A stretch of 11,716 bases of DNA, from positions 1-11,716 of the IMG/VR virus record IMGVR_UViG_2675903352_000003; one strand, 5' to 3'. The stretch is from a virus. Taxonomy: Duplodnaviria; Heunggongvirae; Uroviricota; Caudoviricetes. The notes beneath the pieces are model-generated. The model was not told where the DNA came from. It made no database searches and saw only the letters and a list, made by a program, of their open reading frames with translations. Position numbers and translations under genes: made by a program. This document shows positions 1 through 11,716 of this stretch, piece after piece (the stretch's first letter is position 1; each line of letters starts with the position of its first letter).

Positions 1-89
1 CGCCACGGGAATATCTACGGCAGCAGGCCAGTAATGGGTTAAGTGATAACAGGTGTCTGGAAATATAGGGGCAAATCCATATTAACAGT

Positions 90-965
90 ATGTTTGCTCG
101 CCTCTCAGGAGAGTTAAACGAGCTGGCGATATATGAGGCTAGCTATCAGTTAAGTCTGTTTGACTCTTTGCTTCCTGATTTTGTGGCGGATATTCATCCT
201 CTGATTGGTATCTCACCTGACACCCTTTATGCCGCTGCAATGGCGCGTCCATTTCAGGGAAGACTACTCAACGAATGGGCCTCAGACCTTGAAGCAGATC
301 GGATCAGGCGTATTACAAATACGGTACGTCAGGGTTTTTTGCTGGGTGATACCAATGAGCAGATCGCAAGAAAAATTCGTGGGCATGTCAGCAAGGGATT
401 TCAGGATGGTGCATTGCAGATGAGTCGAGCTAATGCGGGCAGTATTGTAAAAACAGCGGTTGGGCATCTTGCTGCTACTGCCCGTGAGAGTTTCGCCATG
501 GCAAACAATGATTTGATAAAGGGCAAACAATGGTTATCCACACTTGATAATCGTACTACACCACAGTGTCGAATCAGGGATCGCCTCAAATATACGCTGG
601 ATAATAAACCTATTGGTCACAAAGTACCTTATTTACAGGGGCCGGGAAAAATTCATTTCTGCTGCCGTTCAACAGAAACGTTTATTCTGAAATCTGCGAA
701 GGAACTGGGGATTGATGTTCGGGATGTTTCTCCTGCCGAGAGGGCAAGTATGGATGGGGTTGTAGCCGGAGATACGACTTACAAGGAATGGTTTTTGCGC
801 CAGTCTTATGCCAGGCAAAAACAAATAGTGGGAGAAACACGGGCAAAACTGATTCGTGATGGAGGTATGTCACCAGATGAATTTTACACCGATAAAGGTG
901 AATGGTTGACGCTGGGACAACTCCGTGAGCGTGATGCTCAGGCATTCAGAAAAGCCGGGATTTAA
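90..965 (+). CDS. phage head morphogenesis protein (Mu F / SPP1 gp7-like minor head protein), putative
   Basis: 291-aa ORF starting at the first ATG after an in-frame TAG at 66-68. It sits immediately upstream of a scaffold-like gene and the capsid gene. Cys-containing motifs (TTPQCRIRD ... KIHFCCRS) resemble the conserved Cys motifs I recall for the Phage_Mu_F family. No obvious Shine-Dalgarno, so it may be translationally coupled to an upstream gene ending in the first ~68 nt. Confidence 0.55.
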   Translation: MFARLSGELNELAIYEASYQLSLFDSLLPDFVADIHPLIGISPDTLYAAAMARPFQGRLLNEWASDLEADRIRRITNTVRQGFLLGDTNEQIARKIRGHVSKGFQDGALQMSRANAGSIVKTAVGHLAATARESFAMANNDLIKGKQWLSTLDNRTTPQCRIRDRLKYTLDNKPIGHKVPYLQGPGKIHFCCRSTETFILKSAKELGIDVRDVSPAERASMDGVVAGDTTYKEWFLRQSYARQKQIVGETRAKLIRDGGMSPDEFYTDKGEWLTLGQLRERDAQAFRKAGI

Positions 966-984
966 ATTAATTATTTATTACAAC

Positions 985-1012
985 AGGCTATCTTCGGGTG
1001 GCCTTTTTTATT
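985..1012 (+). terminator. intrinsic terminator-like hairpin with cUUCGg tetraloop
   Basis: Stem 985-992 (aggctatc) pairs with 997-1004 (ggtggcct): 8 bp including two G-U pairs. Loop ttcg at 993-996, followed by tttttatt at 1005-1012. Lies 20 nt after the stop of the upstream CDS. Confidence 0.5.
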
Positions 1013-1069
1013 GCTGCAATCTGGATAGTGAGCAGTGTAACAGTCGGAAGACTTAAATCAGGTATTAAT

Positions 1070-1834
1070 ATGAAACTGAAAACAGTAGAGATTAACGGAA
1101 AAAAATACGCAGAAATCGATACTGCTGGTCTGCCAGTTTATGTGCATGATGATGGTAAAGAAATCGGCTTCGATGCACCGCTGGCAGCCAGAAAAATTAC
1201 AGAACTTAATGGCGAGGCGAAAAATCATCGTCTGGCTAAAGAGGCCGCAGAGGAAAAACTTGCCAGGTTCGCTGCCATCGATGACCCGAAAAAGGCGATT
1301 GAGGCGCTGGAAATGCTGTCCAAAATTGACCAGAAAAAACTGATTGATGCGGGACAGGTTGACCAGGTTAAAGCAGAAATTACGAAAAATTTTCAGCAGC
1401 AATTAGACGAAGAAAAGCAACGCTCTCAGATGCTGGAGAAGCAGCTTTACGATTCCATGATTGGCGGTAGTTTTGCTGGTTCAAAATATATTGCCGATAA
1501 AATTGCGATCCCGGCAGATTTATTACAGGCCCGCTTCGGACAGTCATTCAAAGTGGAAGAAGGGAAGATCGTTGCTTATGACGCTTCCGGCAACAAAATT
1601 TACTCCCGCACGAAGCCAGGCGAACTGGCGCAGTTTGATGAGGCGCTGGAGTTCCTCGTCGAAAATTACCCTCAGAAAGACTACATCCTGAAAGCCAGTG
1701 GCAACAATGGTGGCGGCTCCCGTCCGACACAGCATGATATTGGTCAGAAAACGATGAAGCGATCAGCTTTTGATGCACTGGATGTTGCAGGTAAGCAAAA
1801 CGCACTGAAAGACGGTATCACTATCGTTGACTAA
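1070..1834 (+). CDS. putative scaffolding protein
   Basis: ORF track gives 998..1834 from a GTG, but that start lies inside the terminator hairpin. The first in-frame ATG is at 1070 (MKLKTVEING...), with AGG 7 nt upstream. The 254-aa product is K/E/Q-rich and predicted helical, and sits directly upstream of the capsid gene, as scaffolds typically do. Confidence 0.5.
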   Translation: MKLKTVEINGKKYAEIDTAGLPVYVHDDGKEIGFDAPLAARKITELNGEAKNHRLAKEAAEEKLARFAAIDDPKKAIEALEMLSKIDQKKLIDAGQVDQVKAEITKNFQQQLDEEKQRSQMLEKQLYDSMIGGSFAGSKYIADKIAIPADLLQARFGQSFKVEEGKIVAYDASGNKIYSRTKPGELAQFDEALEFLVENYPQKDYILKASGNNGGGSRPTQHDIGQKTMKRSAFDALDVAGKQNALKDGITIVD

Positions 1835-1933
1835 CACATTTTGCCAGTTCCTGGATGGGGACTGGCGTCAGGGCTGGATAGCTCACTACTCAATTCATTT
1901 ACAATTACGCAAAATTTTAAGGAATATTTAATT

Positions 1934-3073
1934 ATGGCTGGAAATACCCTGACCGGGTTGATCCCGACTATTTACACCGCCCTGGATGTTGTATCCCGTG
2001 AGCAGGTAGGTTTTATTCCTGCGGTAGCAAAAAACGCAAAAGCTGACGCTGCAGCAAAAGATCAAACGGTAACCGCGCCAGTTGCGCCTGATGCGAAAAC
2101 TGAAGATATCGTACCGGGCCCGTCAGCTCCGAATACTGGAGATCAAAATATTGGCACTGTTGATGTAAAAATTACTAAATCTAAAATGGCGCCAGTTAAA
2201 TGGAATGGTGAAGAACAACTGGCGCTTGGTCCTTCCGGGACTTACAACACCATTCTGGCTGATCAGTTCAAGCAAGCTTTTCGAGCACTTGCAAACGAGG
2301 TTGAGGCTGATCTTGGCGCACTGTATTTCGGTGCTTCTCGTGCTGTTGGGACCGCGGGGACAACGCCGTTTGGTGTTAAAGATGATCTTTCTGATGCGGC
2401 TCTGGCTCGTCAGATTCTGGAGGATAACGGGGCACCGACAACCGATTTACAGATGGTACTTGGCTCCACCGCTATTGCTAATTTGCGCGGAAAACAGTCC
2501 GTATTGTTTAAAGTGAATGAATCTGGCACTGAGCAGCTACTGCGCGAGGGTGTGTTGGGGCGCCTGGAGGGATTCAGTATTCACAGTTCGGCAGGTGTAA
2601 AACGAGTACCAAAAGCCACTGCAACTGGTTATCTTGTGAATGGTGAGAAGAAAGAAGGTGATGTTCTTATTTCCATTGATACTGGTTCGGGGAATATTTC
2701 GGCAGGGCAGATTGTTACTTTCGATGGCGATCCTAATCAGTATGTTGTGGCTGCTGCAACCAGTAATCTGATTACCCTTGCTGCACCAGGTCTACGTCAG
2801 GATCTGGCTGATGATACTGCAATCACGGTTGTCGGCTCATTTACTGCAAATATGGCGTTCGATCGCAACGCATTTCTGTTGGCATCCCGTACCCCGGCAA
2901 TGCCGGAGGGCGGCGATAGCGCTGATGATGTAATGAATGTTACGGACCCAATCTCGGGAATTACATTTCAGATTGCACTGTATCGTCAGTATCGTCAGGT
3001 ACGTTATGAAGTTGGGCTGGCATGGGGCGTTTCGTCAGTGAAACCTGCGCATAGCTGCCTGATTATTGGATAA
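1934..3073 (+). CDS. major capsid protein, putative
   Basis: ORF track gives 1841..3073 from a TTG. The in-frame ATG at 1934 (MAGNTLTG...) has AAGGA about 10 nt upstream and is the likelier start. The 379-aa product is Ala/Gly/Thr-rich, follows the scaffold gene, and is followed by a strong terminator hairpin. Assignment is by position and size, not by confirmed homology. Confidence 0.6.
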   Translation: MAGNTLTGLIPTIYTALDVVSREQVGFIPAVAKNAKADAAAKDQTVTAPVAPDAKTEDIVPGPSAPNTGDQNIGTVDVKITKSKMAPVKWNGEEQLALGPSGTYNTILADQFKQAFRALANEVEADLGALYFGASRAVGTAGTTPFGVKDDLSDAALARQILEDNGAPTTDLQMVLGSTAIANLRGKQSVLFKVNESGTEQLLREGVLGRLEGFSIHSSAGVKRVPKATATGYLVNGEKKEGDVLISIDTGSGNISAGQIVTFDGDPNQYVVAAATSNLITLAAPGLRQDLADDTAITVVGSFTANMAFDRNAFLLASRTPAMPEGGDSADDVMNVTDPISGITFQIALYRQYRQVRYEVGLAWGVSSVKPAHSCLIIG

Positions 3074-3077
3074 AATC

Positions 3078-3102
3078 AAAAAGGGGCTTCGGTCCCTTTT
3101 TT
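3078..3102 (+). terminator. intrinsic terminator with cUUCGg tetraloop
   Basis: Stem 3078-3087 (aaaaaggggc) pairs with 3092-3101 (gtcccttttt): 10 bp with one G-U. Loop ttcg at 3088-3091, with a T-run through 3102. Begins 5 nt after the capsid stop codon (3071-3073). Confidence 0.7.
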
Positions 3103-3114
3103 AATGGAGGGTAT

Positions 3115-3339
3115 ATGGCTGGATTGACTAAAGATCAAAGAGCACAGCGTGATGCCGCGCAAAAAAATGCAGTGTCGGAGCGGAAGGCGGCGCAAACCAG
3201 GGAACCACAAAAAACACCGATTAAGTTGGTAGTTATGATGACCGAGAATCAGATATTCCCCGGTGCCCCAACAATCGCTAATGTTCATCCTGATGAAGTT
3301 GACAATTGGAAGGCGCTGGGCTGGAAAACACAGGAGTAG
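3115..3339 (+). CDS. hypothetical small protein (74 aa), function unknown
   Basis: ATG at 3115 with GGAGG at 3106-3110. Its stop at 3337-3339 is 4 nt before the next gene start. N-terminal half is highly charged and K/Q/A-rich (TKDQRAQRDAAQKNAVSERKAAQTREPQK). I recognise no motif. Confidence 0.5.
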   Translation: MAGLTKDQRAQRDAAQKNAVSERKAAQTREPQKTPIKLVVMMTENQIFPGAPTIANVHPDEVDNWKALGWKTQE

Positions 3340-3342
3340 CGC

Positions 3343-3738
3343 ATGATCACTTACGTTACCTGTGATGATGTTGATAATACGCTTGGGAAAAACTGGGCGA
3401 ATGAGGATGTTAAAAATAAAGCGGTTTTAATGGCCAATGCCTGGTTGAATAACTTTAGTCTGAAGGTTGATCCATCCAGTATTCCTGACGAGGTAAAGCT
3501 CGCTGGAGCATATGCTGCCAGAGTCGCTTCTGTAGGTAAGTTATTTCAGCAGAAAAATGATTCTGGTGTTGTTATAAATAAAACTGTGTCGGCTGATGGG
3601 GTTAGTGTATCGAAATCATTTGCTGAATTATCAGCAAACAGCACTGCATTGCTTGAGCCCGATTTACAGCTTGCGCTGGCGCTGCTGAAACCGTACGGAC
3701 TGAGTCACTCACAAGTCAGGGTTGTGAGGGGGGGATGA
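3343..3738 (+). CDS. head-tail connector / adaptor protein (gp6-like), putative
   Basis: 131-aa ORF with AGGAG at 3332-3336 six nt upstream of the ATG. Size and position (first of the neck genes after the capsid) fit a head-tail adaptor. Its stop overlaps the next start (ATGA at 3735-3738). Confidence 0.45.
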   Translation: MITYVTCDDVDNTLGKNWANEDVKNKAVLMANAWLNNFSLKVDPSSIPDEVKLAGAYAARVASVGKLFQQKNDSGVVINKTVSADGVSVSKSFAELSANSTALLEPDLQLALALLKPYGLSHSQVRVVRGG

Positions 3739-4115
3739 TGGGGATTCGTGATGAGATTCAGGATGAGGTTGCCGCTGCTTTTGATGGTGATTTAGCTGAT
3801 GCGGTGAATAATTTTTCTGGTTCTTACGTTACGCACCAGGGGTGGGAGCCTGTGACGGAGACAGGCCGCGAACTTACAACAACATATACCGGACGAGGTG
3901 TGTTGGCACGCTATAAGCTTGGCAGAGTTGATGGAATTAATATTTTGCACGGCGACCTTAAGTTAACTGCTCTGGCCTGTGAGGTTACGGATAAACCTGC
4001 TATCGGACATATTATTGAGACTTATGATCCTGTATCAAGGCAGTTACAACGATACGAGATAATTACAGTACATGTAGATCCTTCCGCATCGGTTTATTCT
4101 ATCCAGTTAAGGTGA
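3735..4115 (+). CDS. head-tail joining / head closure protein, putative
   Basis: 126-aa ORF whose start overlaps the upstream stop (ATGA), with a G-rich SD (gaggggggg) upstream. Position in the neck gene block. Confidence 0.4.
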   Translation: MMGIRDEIQDEVAAAFDGDLADAVNNFSGSYVTHQGWEPVTETGRELTTTYTGRGVLARYKLGRVDGINILHGDLKLTALACEVTDKPAIGHIIETYDPVSRQLQRYEIITVHVDPSASVYSIQLR

Positions 4116-4121
4116 AAGTAA

Positions 4122-4502
4122 ATGGCAAAGGCATGGGATCTGGAACCGTCAATATTTGTTGGGATGATTGAGGAAGATGTGGGACTGAAAATTCGCTACA
4201 TCGCTATTCAGATTCTTACAGCTATTGATATTGCCGCTCCGGTTGATACCGGGCGTTTCAGAAATAATAATCTGGTATCGTTACAGCACCCAGATTTTAG
4301 TATATCTGATAATGTGGATCCGAATGGCACGATTGCACTTCAACGTGGAATCGGGGTTATTTCAAAAGCGGCGAATTACGGAATCATCTACATCCAGAAT
4401 AACCTGCCTTATGCCGAATCTATTGAGGATGGACATTCTCAACAAGCGCCAACAGGTGTGTATGCTAATGCTTTTAATGGTGTTTCGCAGATTTATAAAT
4501 GA
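4122..4502 (+). CDS. HK97 gp10-like neck/tail-component protein, putative
   Basis: 126-aa ORF with AGGTGA SD about 7 nt upstream. Contains a DTGRFRNN motif resembling the DTG-x-LR-x-S signature I recall for the HK97 gp10 family. Its stop overlaps the next start (ATGA at 4499-4502). Confidence 0.5.
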   Translation: MAKAWDLEPSIFVGMIEEDVGLKIRYIAIQILTAIDIAAPVDTGRFRNNNLVSLQHPDFSISDNVDPNGTIALQRGIGVISKAANYGIIYIQNNLPYAESIEDGHSQQAPTGVYANAFNGVSQIYK

Positions 4503-4891
4503 CTTTTACTGAAATCAGAAATGCTGTTATTTCCAGAATGACGGCACAGACGGTTATTGATGGAAAAGATGTATTATATCCAAACGGGCCAACATTCGAT
4601 CCGTCAGGTAAGTTAATCTGGGCGCGGTTAAGTGATATCCCCGGTCTGGCTGGGACTAATGAAATTGGTGCGGGTCCGGTTGTTTATCGCACGGGGATAA
4701 TTATTATTCAGTTATTTGTTCCCGCAGGCTCTGGCTCAAAACTTATTACTGAGACGGCGGATAAATTGCGAGAATTGTTTGAATTTCAGGATGATGATCG
4801 TCTCAGCTACCAGGCTGTTTCCTCAATAGCCGTTGGTGAAAAGAATGGCTGGTTCCAGCTTAATCTTCAAATTCCATATCGAGCGCTCTAG
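4499..4891 (+). CDS. tail terminator / tail completion protein (gpU-like), putative
   Basis: 130-aa ORF immediately upstream of the major tail gene, with ATGA start-stop overlap to the upstream gene. Size and position fit a tail terminator. Confidence 0.45.
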   Translation: MTFTEIRNAVISRMTAQTVIDGKDVLYPNGPTFDPSGKLIWARLSDIPGLAGTNEIGAGPVVYRTGIIIIQLFVPAGSGSKLITETADKLRELFEFQDDDRLSYQAVSSIAVGEKNGWFQLNLQIPYRAL

Positions 4892-4917
4892 CGCAATTAA
4901 TGACATAGGAGGCTCCT

Positions 4918-5880
4918 GTGAGTTCAGGTGCAAAGGTTATCTCGGCATTTATCCGGGAGACAATTGCAGGCACCACGCCAGCTAGTGGTGACTGGAGTTT
5001 ATTAAAGCGCACAAGCTGGGGAGTAAAACCAACCCAGAATAAAGGCGAAAATAATGAGATCGGTGGTTCTCGTATGGCTCAGGGGGCGACGCCTGGCACT
5101 GTGGATGTCGGCGGTGATGTTGGTACCAAATTTCGCTGGGGCCAACATGATGATTTCCTTGCATCCTGTTTCGGCGCGGAATGGTCAGGAGATTCTCTGA
5201 CTATGGGGAATGAGCGAATAACATTTTCTCTGGCAACATATGCGTCAGATGTAGGAATTGCCTCTGTCGTCAGGGGGGCACAGGTTGGATCGTGGAAAAT
5301 GCAGATTCCTAACGACGGTGATATTACTGCGACAGTCACTTTTGCCGGGCTGGACTGGGAATCAAAGGCCGATGATACAAATTTTATCAAAGGCGAGCCT
5401 GTAGATAGTGCAGGAAAGTTACGTTATTCGTTTAAGGAAGTTTCAGCAGTAAGTCTGAATGGTGTTGCCGGAGGTAACGGTTTTTGTATCGACAGCTTTG
5501 ATATCCAGTTCGATAACAAACTTCAGACCCAGCGTTGTGTCGGGACTGGTTCTCCTTATGCAGGAGCAAATATTCCGACTACTTTTACACCGTCCGGTAC
5601 GGTGACGCTTTCATGGTCTAAAGCCGCGTGGGAAATCTGGAGTAAAACATTAACTGGAGAAACAGTTCCGTTCAGCTTCACGCTTTCGAATGGAGAGGGG
5701 GCATATACTTTCAGTTTCCCGAAGGTTCAGATATCAGGTGAATGGCCTGACGGCGGTAATACCGATATTATCCAGGTCCAGTTGAGTATTACCGCTGCTG
5801 ATGAAGCGCCAACTATCACCAGAAAAAAAGCTTCCCCGGCTGCAGTGATTGCAAAAGCCAGTGCTGAGTCGATTAGTTGA
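4918..5880 (+). CDS. major tail protein, putative
   Basis: 320-aa ORF starting at GTG 4918, with a perfect AGGAGG at 4907-4912 five nt upstream. Gly/Thr/Ser-rich, and located directly upstream of the G / G-T chaperone pair as major tail genes are in siphoviruses. Confidence 0.6.
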   Translation: MSSGAKVISAFIRETIAGTTPASGDWSLLKRTSWGVKPTQNKGENNEIGGSRMAQGATPGTVDVGGDVGTKFRWGQHDDFLASCFGAEWSGDSLTMGNERITFSLATYASDVGIASVVRGAQVGSWKMQIPNDGDITATVTFAGLDWESKADDTNFIKGEPVDSAGKLRYSFKEVSAVSLNGVAGGNGFCIDSFDIQFDNKLQTQRCVGTGSPYAGANIPTTFTPSGTVTLSWSKAAWEIWSKTLTGETVPFSFTLSNGEGAYTFSFPKVQISGEWPDGGNTDIIQVQLSITAADEAPTITRKKASPAAVIAKASAESIS

Positions 5881-5940
5881 TTTTCCGTTATTCCCCCTGT
5901 GGTATTGCGCTACAGGGTGGTGTTTTGAATGAGGTTATAG

Positions 5941-6492
5941 ATGTTTATTCTTGAACAGAAAACTATCATCGGTGGAGAACGCTGGTTTACGCCAATGAAG
6001 GACTTAGAACCTATTGCTGGGTTACAACTGTTGGTGGCAAGCAGTGATAATGATCAGTATCGCTCCCGTAATGCATTAATCCGTCGCCACATTGAGAAAA
6101 TGGATGCCAGTTTGCATGTCGGAACGAAGGCGTTTGATATTGCAAAGGTCGTCGAGGTGGACTCTGTTGATGATTTACTCATTGATAACGCCGCTCGTTA
6201 TCTGCTGAAAGACTGGAAAGGGGTTGGAGAGCTGGTAGATGGTGTTGAGGTCGCGCTGGAATATACACCAGAAAGAGGTGCTGCGCTGCTCAAGCAGAAT
6301 CCAGAGTTGTACTGGCAAATCCTTGCAGAAGCCGCCAGAATCGCCCAGGGAAAAGAGCAGCAAAAGCAGGATACGATAAAAAAGCCATTGCCGCCCAGCG
6401 GTGGATATCGGAGTTCGGGGGAGAAAAGGGTGAAAAGGCAAGGTGGAAACGAGAAAAGCTCAGATTGCCGCCGCTCCCGGAGCCAGAAATAG
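5941..6492 (+). CDS. tail assembly chaperone (lambda gpG analogue)
   Basis: 183-aa ORF with GAGG SD about 6 nt upstream of ATG 5941. It lies immediately upstream of the tape measure gene and contains an A_AAA_AAG slippery heptamer near its 3' end. Its last 108 nt overlap an open -1 frame that continues to 6698. Confidence 0.7.
   Translation: MFILEQKTIIGGERWFTPMKDLEPIAGLQLLVASSDNDQYRSRNALIRRHIEKMDASLHVGTKAFDIAKVVEVDSVDDLLIDNAARYLLKDWKGVGELVDGVEVALEYTPERGAALLKQNPELYWQILAEAARIAQGKEQQKQDTIKKPLPPSGGYRSSGEKRVKRQGGNEKSSDCRRSRSQK
6378..6384 (+). promoter_or_regulatory. programmed -1 ribosomal frameshift slippery heptamer A_AAA_AAG (G to G-T)
   Basis: In the G frame the codons are ata(6376) aaa(6379) aag(6382), so 6378-6384 reads A AAA AAG in X_XXY_YYZ register. 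The -1 frame is open from 6249 through 6695. Confidence 0.6.
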
Positions 6493-6698
6493 ACCCGGTT
6501 ATTAGGGAATTGTTGTACGCCTATTCGGTGATATCCCGTGCCCGGCGTTATGCTGGAATGGCTGGGGTGCCTTTGCCTTTATCTCTGTCAGAGATAAATG
6601 AATATTTAGCCACTCATCCGGTATTGATTGAGCGCGATGAATTTGAAGCAGTGATCTTTGCACTGGATGACCAGTATTTTCAGGAGCAGTGTGTGTAG
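6384..6698 (+). CDS. T segment of the G-T tail assembly chaperone fusion, expressed by -1 frameshift from G
   Basis: The -1 frame relative to G is open from the slip site to TAG at 6696-6698. It has no credible independent start (ORF track uses TTG 6465 with no SD). The arrangement matches the conserved G / G-T pair upstream of tape measure genes. Predicted fusion is about 252 aa (148 from G plus 104). Confidence 0.55.
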   Translation, partial: AIAAQRWISEFGGEKGEKARWKREKLRLPPLPEPEIDPVIRELLYAYSVISRARRYAGMAGVPLPLSLSEINEYLATHPVLIERDEFEAVIFALDDQYFQEQCV

Positions 6699-6818
6699 TT
6701 GTTAATTACGTACACTCTGTTACAGAGATGTGATAGTGTCTTTAATTAAATCGATGATGCTCCTGGAGAAAAGCATTGCGTGGCCTCGTAATCGCTATAT
6801 CTACTATTATGTCGCCTG

Positions 6819-6846
6819 AAACCCACTTCGGTGGGTTTTTTTGTTG
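6819..6846 (+). terminator. intrinsic terminator with cUUCGg tetraloop
   Basis: Perfect 8-bp stem, 6819-6826 (aaacccac) with 6831-6838 (gtgggttt). Loop ttcg at 6827-6830, followed by ttttg ttg. Lies in the 164-bp spacer between T and H, 17 nt upstream of the H start codon. Confidence 0.7.
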
Positions 6847-6862
6847 TCAGGAGTTTTAATAA

Positions 6863-9800
6863 ATGGCAGAGCAGACCTCACGTCTTGCAATAATTATTGA
6901 TAGCTCTGGAGCGAAAAATAATGCTGATAATCTGACCTCATCATTAGTCAAAATGACGCAGGCCGGGGAAACTGCTGCAAATAGCGCAGGGAAAGTGACT
7001 AAGGCAACAGAAGACGAGAAGAACGCGCTCGCAAAATTAAAAGCAGCTATTGATCCAGTTGGTGCCGCAATTGATACTGTCGGTCGACGCTATTCTGAAT
7101 TAAAGAAATATTTCGATAAAGGGCTTATTGATAAAGAAGAATATGAATTTCTTGCCCGTAAACTTAATGAAACCACAGAGGAATTGAGCGGGGTTGCGCA
7201 AGCGCAGAGAGAGGCCGAGAAGGCCGGAAAACTTGCTGCCGCCCAGCAGGAAGCGCAGGCTCAGGCCTTTCAAAGAATGCTGGACAAGATCGACCCTCTG
7301 GCTGCGGCGCTAAGAAATCTTGATCAACAGCAGGATGAACTTAATGCTGCACTTTTTTCCGGGAAAATAAATGGCTCTCAGTTTGATAATTACAGCCGAA
7401 AAATACAGGAAACGCGGCGAGAGCTAACAGGAGAGGCTCAGGCAGAACGAGAAGCAGCAAAAGCGCATGATGAACAAGTTGCTGCTTTGCAACGTCTGAT
7501 TGCTCAACTCGATCCTGTTGGAACAGCTTTTAACCGCCTGACAGAGCAGCAAAAGCAACTCAGCGAAGCAAAAGCCAAGGGGATGCTTTCTCCTGAAATG
7601 TATGAGGAGCTTTCAGGAAAACTCCATGCTATGCGGAGTGAGCTTGAGGCTACTCAATCGCAACTCAGCAAAACCGGAATGTCAGCAAAACAAACGGCTT
7701 TTGCTATGCGCATGTTGCCTGCACAAATGACGGATATTGTTGTTGGGTTGTCCACTGGTCAGTCGCCATTTATGGTGTTAATGCAGCAGGGCGGCCAGCT
7801 AAAAGATATGTTCGGTGGGATTGGCCCGGCGATCAAAGGTGTTGGTTCTTATGTGCTGGGATTAATTAATCCTTTTACCCTGGCCGCAGCAGCCGTTGGC
7901 GCCTTGGGGCTAGCTTACTATAAAGGTTCTCAGGAGCAGGACGAATTTAATAAATCTCTTATTCTTACCGGAAATCAGTTGGGGACAACCAGCGGGCAAT
8001 TAGCCGATATAGCTCAACGTGCCGGGGATGCTGCTGATTCGACAACTGGCGCTGCGGCGGCAGTATTAAACCAGCTTGTGCGTTCGGGAAAGGTCGCGAG
8101 CAGTTCGCTGGAGCAGGTGACGACAGCGATAGTAAAAACGAGCGAATTAACTGGAATATCGACCGATCAACTGGTTAATAATTTCAATGAAATTGCAAAG
8201 GATCCTGTCAGTGCCATATCAAAACTTAATGATCAGTACCATTTTCTGACACTGGCGACTTATAACCAGATTAAGGCGCTACAGGATGAAGGGAACCAGC
8301 AGGAGGCGGCCCGCATTGCGACAGAAGCATACTCATCCTCAATGATCCAGCGCACCAACCAGATTAAAGAAAATCTTGGTTATCTTGAGACTGCATGGAA
8401 AGCTGTCGCAGACTCCGCAAAATGGGCATGGGATTCCATGCTGGATATTGGCCGTGAGGCCTCCCTTGATCAAAAAATCTCAGATGTTCTCCGTCAAATT
8501 GATGAAATAGAAAAAAATACCCGACCCGGAGTTTTCGGGTTAGGTGGCATTGGAGATGGCGGAGCTCAAAATAAAAGGCTGGCACGATTAAAGCAGCAAT
8601 TGGGCGTACTTCAAGCAGAAAAAATTGCTCAGGACGTACTAAATTCATCAATAAACGATTACAACAAGCGACAACAGGAAGGAATTGAACTCAGACAGAG
8701 AGCAGATGCCTTTTCAAAACAATATCAGACCCGGGAGCAGCAGAGAGCTAGTGAACTTGCAAAACTGGAAAAACTAAAGAGTCAGTATTCAAAGGAAGAA
8801 TATAATAATCTTATCGCTCAAATAAATGAGCGTTATAAAGATCCAAAGCAACCAAAGGCGAAAGGTTATTCGGATGATGCAGCCCAACGAATGATTGATC
8901 ATCTGAATCAACAGAATGCGTTACTAAGTTCACAAACTGAATTAACCGTTAAATTAAGTTCCTCTGAACAGGAACTGGTTAAGTGGCGTCAGCAGATTGC
9001 CGACCTGGAGTCACGACCGTCATCAAAATTAACTAAGGATCAGAAATCGCTTCTCTTACACCGGGAAGAAATAACCGCGTTGATGGAGAAAAATGTTGCG
9101 ATTGAAAAAAATAACAGGCTAATCAAGGAGTCAGCCGAAATAGCCGCATGGCGTAGTTCATTGCAGGCTTCTATTGATAATCATCAGCAGGGGTATGACA
9201 TTCAGATCGCTGGTTATGGACTTGGCGATAAAAATCAGCAACGTCAGCAGGAATTACTGCGGATTGAACGTGAATATAACAACCGGCGTCTGCAACTTGA
9301 ACGTGACTATGCGGATAAATCTCGTGGAATGTCTGAACGTGTTTTTCAGGAAAAAATACAGGTCCTGAATGATGCTGTGGAGCGGGAAAAAGAAATTATC
9401 AGGCAGAAAAATGAGCAGCTCGATATTCAGGCTGGAGACTGGGTAAGTGGGGCGTCCCAAGGATTCAATAACTGGTTGGATAACACTAAGGATATCAGCG
9501 GGCAGATAAAATCAACCACGACTCAGATGTTTGATGGGATGACAGATGCGCTTGGTGATTTTGTCACGACAGGTAAGGCAAATTTTCGTTCTTTCGCTAC
9601 CTCCGTGATTTCAGATCTTAGCAGAATAGCATTAAAGGCTTCAATTACCGGGATTTTCGACAGCATTAGCAACAGTTCTTCTGGGGGAATTTTAGGAACT
9701 ATCGGAAGTGCTGTTAGTAAATTTATTCCTAATGCAAAGGGCGGTATTTATGAGTCTCCATCATTGAGTACATATTCAAACGGTATTTATGATTCCCCGC

Positions 9801-10096
9801 AATTTTTTGCTTTTGCAAAAGGTGCTGGTGTTTTTGGTGAGGCTGGACCGGAAGCTATTATGCCATTAACACGAACTTCCGATGGTTCTCTTGGTGTCAG
9901 GGCGATTAATAATAAAGGCGGTAATGGAGGCGGAGACATTAATTACTCTCCTGTATATCAAATTACTATCAAAAATGACGGACAGAATGGAGAGATTGGC
10001 CCTCAGGCAATTAGAACACTTATGGGAATGGTTGATCAGCGAGTGCAGGGCACTTTGTTAAATATGCGACGTGATGGAGGAATGTTAAGTGGCTGA
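6863..10096 (+). CDS. H: tail tape measure protein (lambda gpH homologue)
   Basis: 1077-aa ORF with AGGAG at 6849-6853 nine nt upstream of the ATG. It contains [39 protein letters not shown], which I recognise as matching the conserved segment of lambda H ([11 protein letters not shown]...GGQSPW..LQQGGQVKDSFGG), and a C-terminus [13 protein letters not shown]...[10 protein letters not shown] matching lambda H NDGTNGQIGPAAL...MRDGGLFSG. Long central charged coiled-coil-like region. Confidence 0.95.
7046..7672 (+). repeat. three tandem divergent copies of a ~70-80-aa module in the N-terminal region of the tape measure protein (protein-level repeat)
   Basis: Translated copies align: [23 protein letters not shown]...[30 protein letters not shown]; [24 protein letters not shown]...[29 protein letters not shown]; [24 protein letters not shown]...[28 protein letters not shown]. 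The DNA copies are diverged, so the duplication is old. Confidence 0.6.
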
Positions 10097-10421
10097 AGAA
10101 TTCCACTGGTTACCAGAGGATGGAATGAAAACAGAAAATAAACCATCGATAAAAACTGTAAGATTTGGCGATGGTTATGAGCAACGAAGTCCAAATGGAC
10201 TTAATCATTCTCTACGTGTTTTCACCTGTGATTTCAAGGTTGAGGCGAATGAACGTGATTCATTCGAAAATTTTTTAGCACGGCATGGAGGCTATAAATC
10301 TTTTTTTTGGCGTCCACCTGGTGTTAACAGAAAAATCAGAGTGGTGTGTCGAACGTGGTCAGCTACAGAACATATCACCTATACCGATTTTTCGTGTCAG
10401 TTTGATGAAGTGGTGATCTGA
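10089..10421 (+). CDS. M: minor tail protein M (lambda gpM homologue)
   Basis: 110-aa ORF starting at GTG 10089, with GGAGG at 10076-10080 eight nt upstream; it overlaps the end of H by 8 nt. The N-terminus [28 protein letters not shown] aligns with lambda M as I recall it (KTFRWKVKPGMDVASVPSVRKVRFGDGY), and size matches lambda M (109 aa). Divergent from lambda overall. Confidence 0.85.
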
Positions 10422-11119
10422 TGCAGGATATCCGGCAGGAAACACTGAATGAGTGTACAAAAGCGGAGCAATCCGCGCTGATCGTGCTCTGGGAAGTCGA
10501 TCTGACAGAGGTCGGCGGAGAGCGTTATTTTTTCTGTAATGAGCAGAACGAAAAAGACGAACCAGTCACCTGGCAGGGGCGGCAGTATCAGGCGTACCCC
10601 ATTCAGGGGAGCGGATTTGAGATGAACGGTAAAGGAGCCAGCGCCAGGCCAACTCTGAAAGTCTCTAATCTGCACGGCATGGTCACCGGGATGGTGGAAG
10701 ATTTGCAGAGTCTGGTCGGCGGAACGGTGGTCAGGCGTAAGGTTTACGCCCGTTTTCTGGATGCGGTGAACTTCGTCAACGGAAACATCGAGGCAGACCC
10801 GGAGCAGGAGGCGATCAGCCGCTGGCGCATCGAGCAGTGCAGCGAACTGAGCGCGGTCAGTGCCTCCTTTGTGCTCTCCACACCGACGGAAACGGACGGC
10901 ACTGTTTTTCCGGGACGTATCATGCTGGCCAACACCTGCACCTGGACCTATCGCGGCGATGAGTGCGGTTATAGCGGTCCGGCGGTCGCGGATGAATATG
11001 ACCAGCCAACGTCCGATATCACGAAGGATAAATGCAGCAAATGCCTGAGTGGCTGTAAGTTCCGCAATAACGTCGCCAACTTTGGCGGCTTCCTTTCCAT
11101 TAACAAACTTTCGCAGTAA
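10421..11119 (+). CDS. L: minor tail protein L (lambda gpL homologue), C-terminal Cys cluster
   Basis: 232-aa ORF. Its ATG overlaps the M stop by 1 nt (tgATG). [12 protein letters not shown]...VGGERYFFCNEQNEK...GRIMLANTCTWTYRGDECGYSGP...KDKCSKCLSGCKFRNN matches lambda gpL almost residue-for-residue from memory, with the same length. The C-terminal cysteines correspond to the reported iron-sulfur cluster ligands of lambda gpL. Confidence 0.95.
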   Translation: MQDIRQETLNECTKAEQSALIVLWEVDLTEVGGERYFFCNEQNEKDEPVTWQGRQYQAYPIQGSGFEMNGKGASARPTLKVSNLHGMVTGMVEDLQSLVGGTVVRRKVYARFLDAVNFVNGNIEADPEQEAISRWRIEQCSELSAVSASFVLSTPTETDGTVFPGRIMLANTCTWTYRGDECGYSGPAVADEYDQPTSDITKDKCSKCLSGCKFRNNVANFGGFLSINKLSQ

Positions 11120-11123
11120 ACCC

Positions 11124-11716
11124 ATGACAGAAACAGAATCAGCGATTCTGGCGCACGCCCGGCGATGTGCGCCAGCGGAGTCGTGCGGCTTCGTGGTGAG
11201 AACGCCGGAGGGAGAAAGATATTTTCCCTGCGTGAATATCTCCGGTGAGCCGGAGGATTATTTCAGGCTGTCGACGGAGGACTGGCTGCAGGCAGAAATG
11301 CAGGGGGAGATTGTGGCGCTGGTCCACAGCCACCCCGGTGGTCTGCCCTGGCTGAGTGAGGCTGACCGGCGGCTGCAGGTGCAGAGTGATTTGCCGTGGT
11401 GGCTGGTCTGCCGGGGTGAGATTCACAAGTTCCGCTGTGTGCCACATCTTACCGGGCGGCGCTTTGAACACGGGGTGACGGACTGTTACACGCTGTTCCG
11501 GGACGCTTACCATCTGGCGGGAATTGAGATGCCGGATTTTCACCGCGGGGATGACTGGTGGCGTAACGGTCAGAATCTCTATCTGGATAATCTGGAGGCC
11601 ACAGGGCTGTATCAGGTGCCGTTGTCAGCGGCGCAGCCGGGCGATGTGCTGCTGTGCTGTTTTGGTTCATCGGTGCCGAATCATGCCGCCATTTACTGTG
11701 GTGACGGCGAGCTGCT
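11124..11716 (+). CDS. K: tail assembly protein K (lambda gpK homologue), 3'-truncated by window end
   Basis: ATG at 11124, 4 nt after the L stop, open to the window end (not in the ORF track because no stop is reached). Translation MTETESAILAHARRCAPAESCGFVV...EIVALVHSHPGGLPWLSEADRR...GVTDCYTLFRDAYHLAG carries a JAMM/MPN-type motif (HSHPGG...SEAD) followed by an NlpC/P60-like Cys (DCYTLF), as in lambda K. Confidence 0.9.
   Translation, partial: MTETESAILAHARRCAPAESCGFVVRTPEGERYFPCVNISGEPEDYFRLSTEDWLQAEMQGEIVALVHSHPGGLPWLSEADRRLQVQSDLPWWLVCRGEIHKFRCVPHLTGRRFEHGVTDCYTLFRDAYHLAGIEMPDFHRGDDWWRNGQNLYLDNLEATGLYQVPLSAAQPGDVLLCCFGSSVPNHAAIYCGDGEL

Follow-up and report, generated by a model that had tools for sequence, protein, structure and literature searches.

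The tape measure gene and its domains

The window, the whole 11,716-nt stretch of DNA analysed here (positions 1 to 11,716 of IMG/VR record IMGVR_UViG_2675903352_000003), is a lambdoid prophage block for head and tail morphogenesis, and its source element is a Rac-like Escherichia coli prophage. Our subject is its tail length tape measure protein (TMP), a member of the lambda H family that carries three diverged tandem copies of one unit near its N terminus. The length of the tape measure sets the length of the phage tail. The gene and its parts, the repeat units being scored with a profile hidden Markov model (HMM), are as follows.

6863-10096, plus strand: tail length TMP gene, lambda H family, 1077 residues (Pfam, TIGR01541, BLASTP to lambda H)
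6863-7048, plus strand: leader N0, conserved N-terminal segment, residues 1-62 (jackhmmer profile)
7049-7288, plus strand: repeat unit 1, residues 63-142 (80 residues), core 63-110; unit HMM 67.8 bits for the core and 95.1 bits for the full unit
7289-7507, plus strand: repeat unit 2, residues 143-215 (73 residues), core 143-190; unit HMM 75.8 bits for the core and 98.1 bits for the full unit
7508-7702, plus strand: repeat unit 3, residues 216-280 (65 residues), core 216-262; unit HMM 71.9 bits for the core
7661-8275, plus strand: TMP_2 domain, residues 267-471, with the AMRMLPAQ anchor and a hydrophobic segment (Pfam, alignment to lambda H 57-260)
7703-7726, plus strand: AMRMLPAQ anchor, residues 281-288
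8873-9106, plus strand: TMP_4 domain, residues 671-748 (Pfam)
9434-9658, plus strand: Tape_meas_lam_C domain, residues 858-932 (Pfam, TIGR01541)

Pfam assigned TMP_2 (PF06791; 274.5 bits, cutoff 30.2) to residues 267-471 of the 1077-residue open reading frame (ORF), TMP_4 (86.2 bits) to residues 671-748 and Tape_meas_lam_C (PF09718; 90.4 bits, cutoff 23) to residues 858-932, and TIGR01541 matched at 215.5 bits (cutoff 104.75). The protein is a lambda-family TMP: it has TMP_2 and the lambda-type C-terminal domain, and its gene stands between a chaperone pair and homologues of M and L. Residues 1-266 are covered by no Pfam or NCBIfam model. Since Pfam TMP_2 begins at residue 267, the tail of unit 3 is also the start of that domain.

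The N-terminal triplication is real and old

The original prediction, made from the letters alone, placed a triplicated N-terminal unit at 7046-7672. Smith-Waterman alignment with shuffles and the unit HMM both confirmed the triplication, with its ends slightly shifted (7049-7702). The region divides at three [IL]DP motifs into residues 63-142, 143-215 and 216-280. Between-unit Smith-Waterman scores were 119, 77 and 70 (z = 15.9, 9.6 and 9.0) against shuffle means of 26-31, and none of 2000 composition-preserving shuffles reached the observed values. An HMM of the 48-residue core, built from homologues and with the window's own units in its seed alignment, found exactly three copies in the TMP at 68-76 bits each. 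With the iterated unit HMM (114 units from representatives, the window's three included) the copies scored 53-62 bits, and the three full-length matches lie between the leader and the anchor. The motifs first listed for the module are real, except that A-Q-A-x-REA-x-KA is restricted to units 1 and 2; unit 3 has the conserved start of TMP_2 at that position.

A sceptic could hold that there is no true repeat, only a by-product of coiled-coil composition or of ORF calling. A, E, L and Q abound in the region, which has weak coiled-coil matches to SMC/Rad50, and DNA repeat finders returned nothing: around a period of 219-240 nt Tandem Repeats Finder detected no array, and a DNA repeat search of the window gave no in-register repeat family. 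Self-BLASTP of the ORF likewise gave the identity match only. However, shuffles that keep the composition never attain the observed scores. In a stricter coiled-coil control, in which the units were compared with 58 other helical windows from this TMP and lambda H, the maxima were 42-51, so that no such window exceeded 51 against 70-119 between units. The D-P and G residues, which are not coiled-coil positions, are conserved, and the architecture recurs in hundreds of homologues, with 54-90% identity between orthologous units. The shuffle, HMM, helical-window and conservation tests exclude a compositional artefact, and the chance that the repeat is unreal is negligible.

The DNA repeat finders were negative because the copies are too diverged, which fits an old duplication and not the absence of a repeat. 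The paralogous cores share 29-33% identity in protein, 43-45% in nucleotides and 27-29% at third codon positions, the last being saturation. A recent tandem duplication or slippage array was therefore rejected, given this third-position identity and the lack of in-register DNA repeats. Orthologous units of Klebsiella, Raoultella and Pantoea are closer to those of the window (unit 1, 75-90%; unit 2, 65-77%; unit 3, 54-67%) than the paralogous units are to each other, and the triplication is thus older than the spread of the cassette across the Enterobacteriaceae. An old duplication had been claimed from the start, and both the saturated third positions and the closer orthologues bear this out. 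In four-unit proteins the extra unit is nearest to unit 2 (46-58%).

Unit signature and predicted structure

The core signature is [IL]DP-x7-L-x6-L-x6-G-x-[LIV]-x4-[FY]-x6-[LI]-x6-L, followed by a linker helix rich in Ala, Gln and Glu. Among 114 units taken from clusters below 50% identity, conservation was 100% for P3, 94% for D2, 96% for L18, 92% for G25, 99% for [LIV]27, 95% for [FY]32, 98% for [LI]39 and 100% for L46, and both core helices have hydrophobic residues at a spacing of 3-4. Consecutive units start 66, 73, 80 or 87 residues apart in 103 of 107 cases, the steps being of one heptad; since the sequences are related, these spacings amount to four length classes and not to 103 separate events. 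Gaps in the MAFFT alignment of the units are exactly 7 columns wide, and the last unit begins exactly 65 residues ahead of the anchor in 106 of the 128 proteins counted. Linkers that vary by whole heptads point to the long helix, at least, being part of a coiled coil whose register matters.

An AlphaFold2 (AF2) model of residues 1-330, computed from an 18-sequence alignment, has the units all-helical and interrupted only at the DP and at the Gly. Each predicted unit consists of a 21-residue helix, a loop of 4-5 residues at the conserved Gly and a helix of 28-53 residues running to the next DP (unit 1: helix 65-85, loop 86-90, helix 91-143; unit 2: helix 145-166, loop 167-170, helix 171-216). 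Pfam, NCBIfam and PHROGs contain no model specific to the unit, the matches being whole-TMP PHROGs and sub-threshold SHOCT or coiled-coil hits only.

The extra length over lambda H lies at the N terminus

Lambda H (J02459) has 853 residues and the window TMP 1077. BLASTP aligned the two from residue 270 of the window TMP (residue 57 of lambda H) through the C terminus (E = 2e-78, 28% identity), which places 213 of the 224 excess residues at the N terminus. Equally, the AMRMLPAQ anchor lies at residue 68 in lambda H and at residue 281 in the window TMP. The idea that the repeats account for the extra length is therefore upheld by the alignment. The companion idea that lambda H itself has one copy of the unit was not: the unit HMM found none N-terminally, with no match in the first 400 residues.

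The sole unit HMM match in lambda H, weak and partial, lies in mid-protein at residues 417-439 (L001) and reads ARQEELNKALKDGKILQADYNTL; it is upstream of the stretch aligned to the window's TMP_4. A partial unit motif (L..A...G.I....Y) is likewise seen in the central helices of 18 representatives (residues ~605-915; for example P0092, P0121, P0136 and P0186), and its counterpart at residues 630-663 of the window TMP falls short of the threshold. The unit could be an ancient element from which the entire protein was built.

With its anchor at residue 68, lambda H can accommodate no more than a leader in front of it, and this segment was approached through the leader. A jackhmmer profile of N0 matched the N termini of ~132 of the representative TMPs searched and gave no direct match to lambda H. 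P0119 serves as a bridge, since the N0 profile matches it at E = 5e-9 and its first 54 residues are similar to residues 1-54 of lambda H (z = 12.6). Judged through this intermediate, residues 1-56 of lambda H correspond to the leader and not to a unit, and the units would thus be an insertion between the leader and TMP_2. Leader residues 22-61 (nt 6926-7045) are weakly similar to the second half of the unit (full-unit HMM, E = 0.03), as are lambda H residues 14-56 to unit 2 (z = 3.2). The leader may be a degenerate half-unit, a signal too weak to call.

Copy number varies and whole cassettes are exchanged

When 1.84 billion representatives were scanned in full with HMMER, 15,917 relatives came up, and the best 150 were analysed. 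Units and anchor were scored with the iterated HMM in 145 proteins, namely 143 representatives, the window TMP and lambda H; a first protein search had returned mostly fragments, and the copy-number census was taken from the representative search. Upstream of the anchor, 72 of these proteins have no detectable unit, 55 have one, nine have two, five have three, three have four and one has five. One copy is therefore the commonest state among unit carriers, and about half of the family has none that can be detected. Across the 134 proteins of 800-1300 residues, N-terminal length correlates with total length (r = 0.93, slope 1.12) and the remainder of the TMP is nearly constant (817 ± 35 residues), from which it follows that the slot between leader and anchor holds most of the family's length variation.

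Some TMPs without a unit (P0119, P0138) have this slot filled by an unrelated repeated module, GKT..E...L.AA.GV...AP.I..L. In the form F...L..QA...GKT..E...L.AA..GV....AP.I..L, this second module was seen in the N-terminal slot of P0119, P0138 and P0225, sometimes twice, and in T1 gp38 (L003:4548-7421) it occupies residues ~150-195 alongside one unit.

Closely related alleles differ in this cassette. Two Pantoea TMPs within one 90%-identity cluster, P0230 (1195 residues, four units) and P0231 (969 residues, one unit), are identical over residues 1-39 and 93.5% identical past the anchor, and the last unit of P0230 and the lone unit of P0231 share just 42% identity. The same swap pattern was observed between P0023 and P0045 of Klebsiella aerogenes (three units vs one, with 98% identity downstream). 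Conserved flanks around diverged cassettes indicate whole-cassette replacement by recombination in the flanks, not simple deletion. As for distribution, of 5426 complete E. coli genomes 1079 contain the N-terminal 1438 nt of the TMP gene, and 710 of these cover at least 80% of it; close relatives of the prophage occur in E. coli APEC O1 and 042. TMPs of the TMP_2 type are present in 1179 phage records. The nearest phage records (94.6-94.8% identical) are prophage-derived, induced or predicted, and our literature search found no electron microscopy of phages with this TMP.

A ruler reading and its competitors

The ruler model of Katsura and Hendrix (1984), as cited in PMC3271669 and PMC13585406, makes tail length proportional to TMP length. 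We infer that the units probably act as a modular spacer in such a protein ruler, lying extended in the tube and counting towards tail length. Conserved flanks (N0 and the TMP_2 anchor) around variable helical units are as expected of a ruler spacer. As a tail assembles, the TMP has its C terminus fixed in the tip complex and the tube polymerises around the extended protein up to its N-terminal end, so that each unit in the slot would add ruler length on the head-proximal side. Copy number would be altered by duplication and by homologous exchange of whole cassettes between the conserved flanks, and linker length shifts by whole heptads, which would preserve the coiled-coil register.

Lambda, with its 853-residue H, has 32 rings at a rise of ~42 Å (PMC10721106), and T1, whose gp38 has 957 residues, has ~34 rings at ~42 Å (PMC11945409). 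These two phages give a calibration of 26.7-28.1 residues per 42-Å ring. On that scale the 1077-residue TMP is predicted to yield ~38-40 rings (~161-170 nm) against 32 (~134 nm) in lambda, with an increment of ~2.5-3 rings per unit. The longer tail expected in the original prediction follows from the ruler model, and it fits the lambda and T1 calibrations. No evidence was found for an integer number of rings per unit or cassette, the estimate being 2.4-3.0 rings per unit.

Several points weigh against reading the units simply as ruler length. The AF2 model of residues 1-330 is of low confidence (mean predicted local distance difference test score 58, predicted template modelling score 0.26), its cores reaching 72-82, and a Foldseek search of the PDB with this model returned nothing significant, the best hits being short antiparallel helical hairpins (E >= 0.38). 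Should helix A double back along helix B inside the tube, the contribution of a unit would drop below 1.5 Å per residue. T1 gp38 exceeds lambda H by 104 residues, but T1 gains only ~2 rings; N-terminal modules may thus add less to the ruler than middle-region residues do. The ring rise of the window phage is an assumed one, since its tube protein belongs to Phage_tube_2 and not to the lambda V family, and the closest phage records are unstudied prophages. Finally, the strong conservation of DP, G and F/Y suggests that the units may make a specific contact over and above mere length.

Such a contact could mean that the units are mainly docking modules for the G/GT-like chaperone or for proteins that stop tube growth, in which case length would be a side effect and copy number would tune chaperone loading or termination efficiency. 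The signature is indeed conserved well past the needs of a coiled coil (P 100%, G 92%, F/Y 95% and L 96-100% in the 114 units), a G/GT-type chaperone pair is encoded immediately upstream of the TMP gene, and for other TMPs it has been suggested that periodic aromatics anchor auxiliary proteins (PMC3271669). Lambda H nevertheless assembles with G/GT without any N-terminal unit, about half of the family has none that is detectable, and a docking role is compatible with a ruler role. We consider it unlikely that docking is the main function.

The units might instead act after ejection, when the N-terminal part of the TMP would help to build a channel through the envelope, with additional units making it longer or fitting it to, for example, a capsule or a wider periplasm. 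Cryo-electron tomography of Ur-lambda assigned a periplasmic channel to a gpH* hexamer, with gpH* residues 1-319 modelled as a tube-like hexamer beside a predicted membrane segment at 116-140 (PMC12617516). In the window TMP the units lie directly upstream of the hydrophobic segment homologous to that membrane segment, and multi-copy alleles are common in the capsulated genera Klebsiella, Raoultella and Pantoea. This support is purely circumstantial, however, and the orientation and placement of gpH* are explicitly tentative in the tomographic study (PMC12617516). The width of the periplasm varies too little among E. coli strains to explain zero vs three units, and one-unit and three-unit alleles coexist within Klebsiella aerogenes. 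A role after ejection is quite improbable as the main explanation.

The ruler reading can be carried one step further. The slot could be a dedicated length cassette, swapped by recombination and holding 0-5 units, that gives discrete tail-length alleles in steps of ~2.5-3 rings; we put this forward tentatively and regard it as possible but doubtful. If true, it would amount to a natural, selectable tail-length polymorphism among near-identical prophages, possibly matched to the depth of the envelope or capsule. Natural allele pairs that are nearly isogenic (one vs three or four units) form a ready experimental series for the ruler, which bears on whether head-proximal residues count, on the number of residues per tube ring and on selection for tail length.

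Genomic setting of the tape measure gene

The rest of the head and tail block includes the following.

90-965: Mu-F-like minor head protein
998-1834: DUF6651 protein
1841-3073: P22-type coat protein
4499-4891: tail terminator
4918-5880: Phage_tube_2 tube protein, 320 residues
5941-6492, plus strand: G-like tail assembly chaperone, 183 residues (PHROG 313 'tail assembly chaperone', E = 1e-47)
6351-6698, plus strand: T-like extension of the chaperone in the -1 frame, which is free of stop codons here (PHROG 1189, E = 3.5e-36)
10089-10421, plus strand: minor tail protein M homologue (Pfam Phage_min_tail, 111 bits)
10421-11119, plus strand: minor tail protein L homologue (Pfam Phage_tail_L, 331 bits)

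Positions 90-5880 make the window a mosaic relative to lambda, the E and V types being absent while H, M and L are lambda-like. The T-like extension matched Pfam Phage_TAC_18 weakly (21.8 bits, under the cutoff of 27). The -1 frame stays open past the end of the G-like ORF, as expected of a programmed frameshift of the G/GT type, and candidate slip sites GAAAAGG occur at 6423-6429 and 6432-6438, neither of which is a canonical X XXY YYZ heptamer.

Between the chaperone genes and the TMP start lies a gap of 164 nt (6699-6862), which folds better than its shuffles (z = -3.0). It contains a strong terminator-like hairpin at 6818-6839, GAAACCCAC-TTCG-GTGGGTTTT, followed by a T-run to ~6848, and the hairpin is placed ~20 nt ahead of the ribosome binding site of the TMP gene. 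Lambda has no such gap, its genes T and H overlapping; in T1 a rho-independent terminator is annotated at the equivalent position, just upstream of the TMP gene. The hairpin may reduce expression of the TMP relative to the tube and chaperone genes.

On the minus strand, 3' of the L homologue and in the place of lambda K, positions 11139-11670 hold two ORFs of 134 and 73 residues, the former belonging to PHROG 25447 of unknown function. The pair may be an inserted moron. A 242-residue minus-strand ORF at 10397-11125, antisense within the L gene, is probably spurious.

Comparison with known systems

Tandem units are known in the TMPs of some Gram-positive phages. Belcaid, Bergeron and Poisson (2011) described TMP tandem units as 11-residue or 11-11-18 repeats with W/F markers (PMC3271669). 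Those units resemble the ones described here in being tandem segments of a TMP whose copy number differs among relatives and which are read as length units of a ruler. They differ in having an 11-residue period and a central location, whereas the units described here have a period of 66-87 residues and are N-terminal, and in being recent repeats at the DNA level, whereas the present copies are very old and move together as one cassette. The 11-residue type was rejected for the window protein, in which neither the [FW]-x10 pattern (at least 7 markers) nor the 11-11-18 pattern was found; within residues 1-290 no run of three aromatics at 11-residue spacing was observed. SHOCT (PF09851) was also considered, as the centre of unit 1 resembles its helix-Gly-helix motif. 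This identity was rejected: the match reached 16.3 bits, short of the cutoff of 27, and was confined to unit 1, with no match in the other seven of the eight units tested.

Length variation of TMPs through tandem units is thus already known, the gene is common and routinely annotated, and this is no new kind of system. Our literature search found no account of a 66-87-residue N-terminal unit, its copy-number series or its exchange as a cassette; for the lambda family, the site and unit of natural length variation had not previously been shown, as far as we found.

The closest studied relatives share the framework and differ in the slot. Lambda gpH has the TMP_2, TMP_4 and lam_C domains in common with the window TMP, and the gene order (chaperone with -1 frame extension, TMP, M, L) is shared; it differs in having no unit between leader and anchor, and the window further departs from lambda in its Phage_tube_2 family tube protein and its P22-like head module. 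T1 gp38 (957 residues) is also of the TMP_2 type, with a leader, an anchor and one unit at residues 73-115 (20.6 bits). It has this one unit as opposed to three, the unrelated module GKT..E...L.AA.LG....AP.I..L fills the remaining slot, and its anchor is at residue 209.

The nearest counterpart is found in E. coli K-12 MG1655. The ynaA gene of Rac (L002:4001-4933) matches the first 935 nt of the TMP gene at 94.5% nucleotide identity, and lies in K-12 among trkG, ydaY, an IS5-disrupted lom-like gene and stfR. Unit counts offer an easy annotation rule for such genes, and the finding also accounts for ynaA, which corresponds to the first 311 codons of the TMP, comprising the leader, all three units and ~30 residues of TMP_2. 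It differs in being a C-terminally truncated pseudogene in the decayed Rac prophage, ending ahead of the IS5-disrupted lom-like gene, whereas the window gene is intact within a complete head and tail module. The window is thus related to the tail module of Rac but intact.

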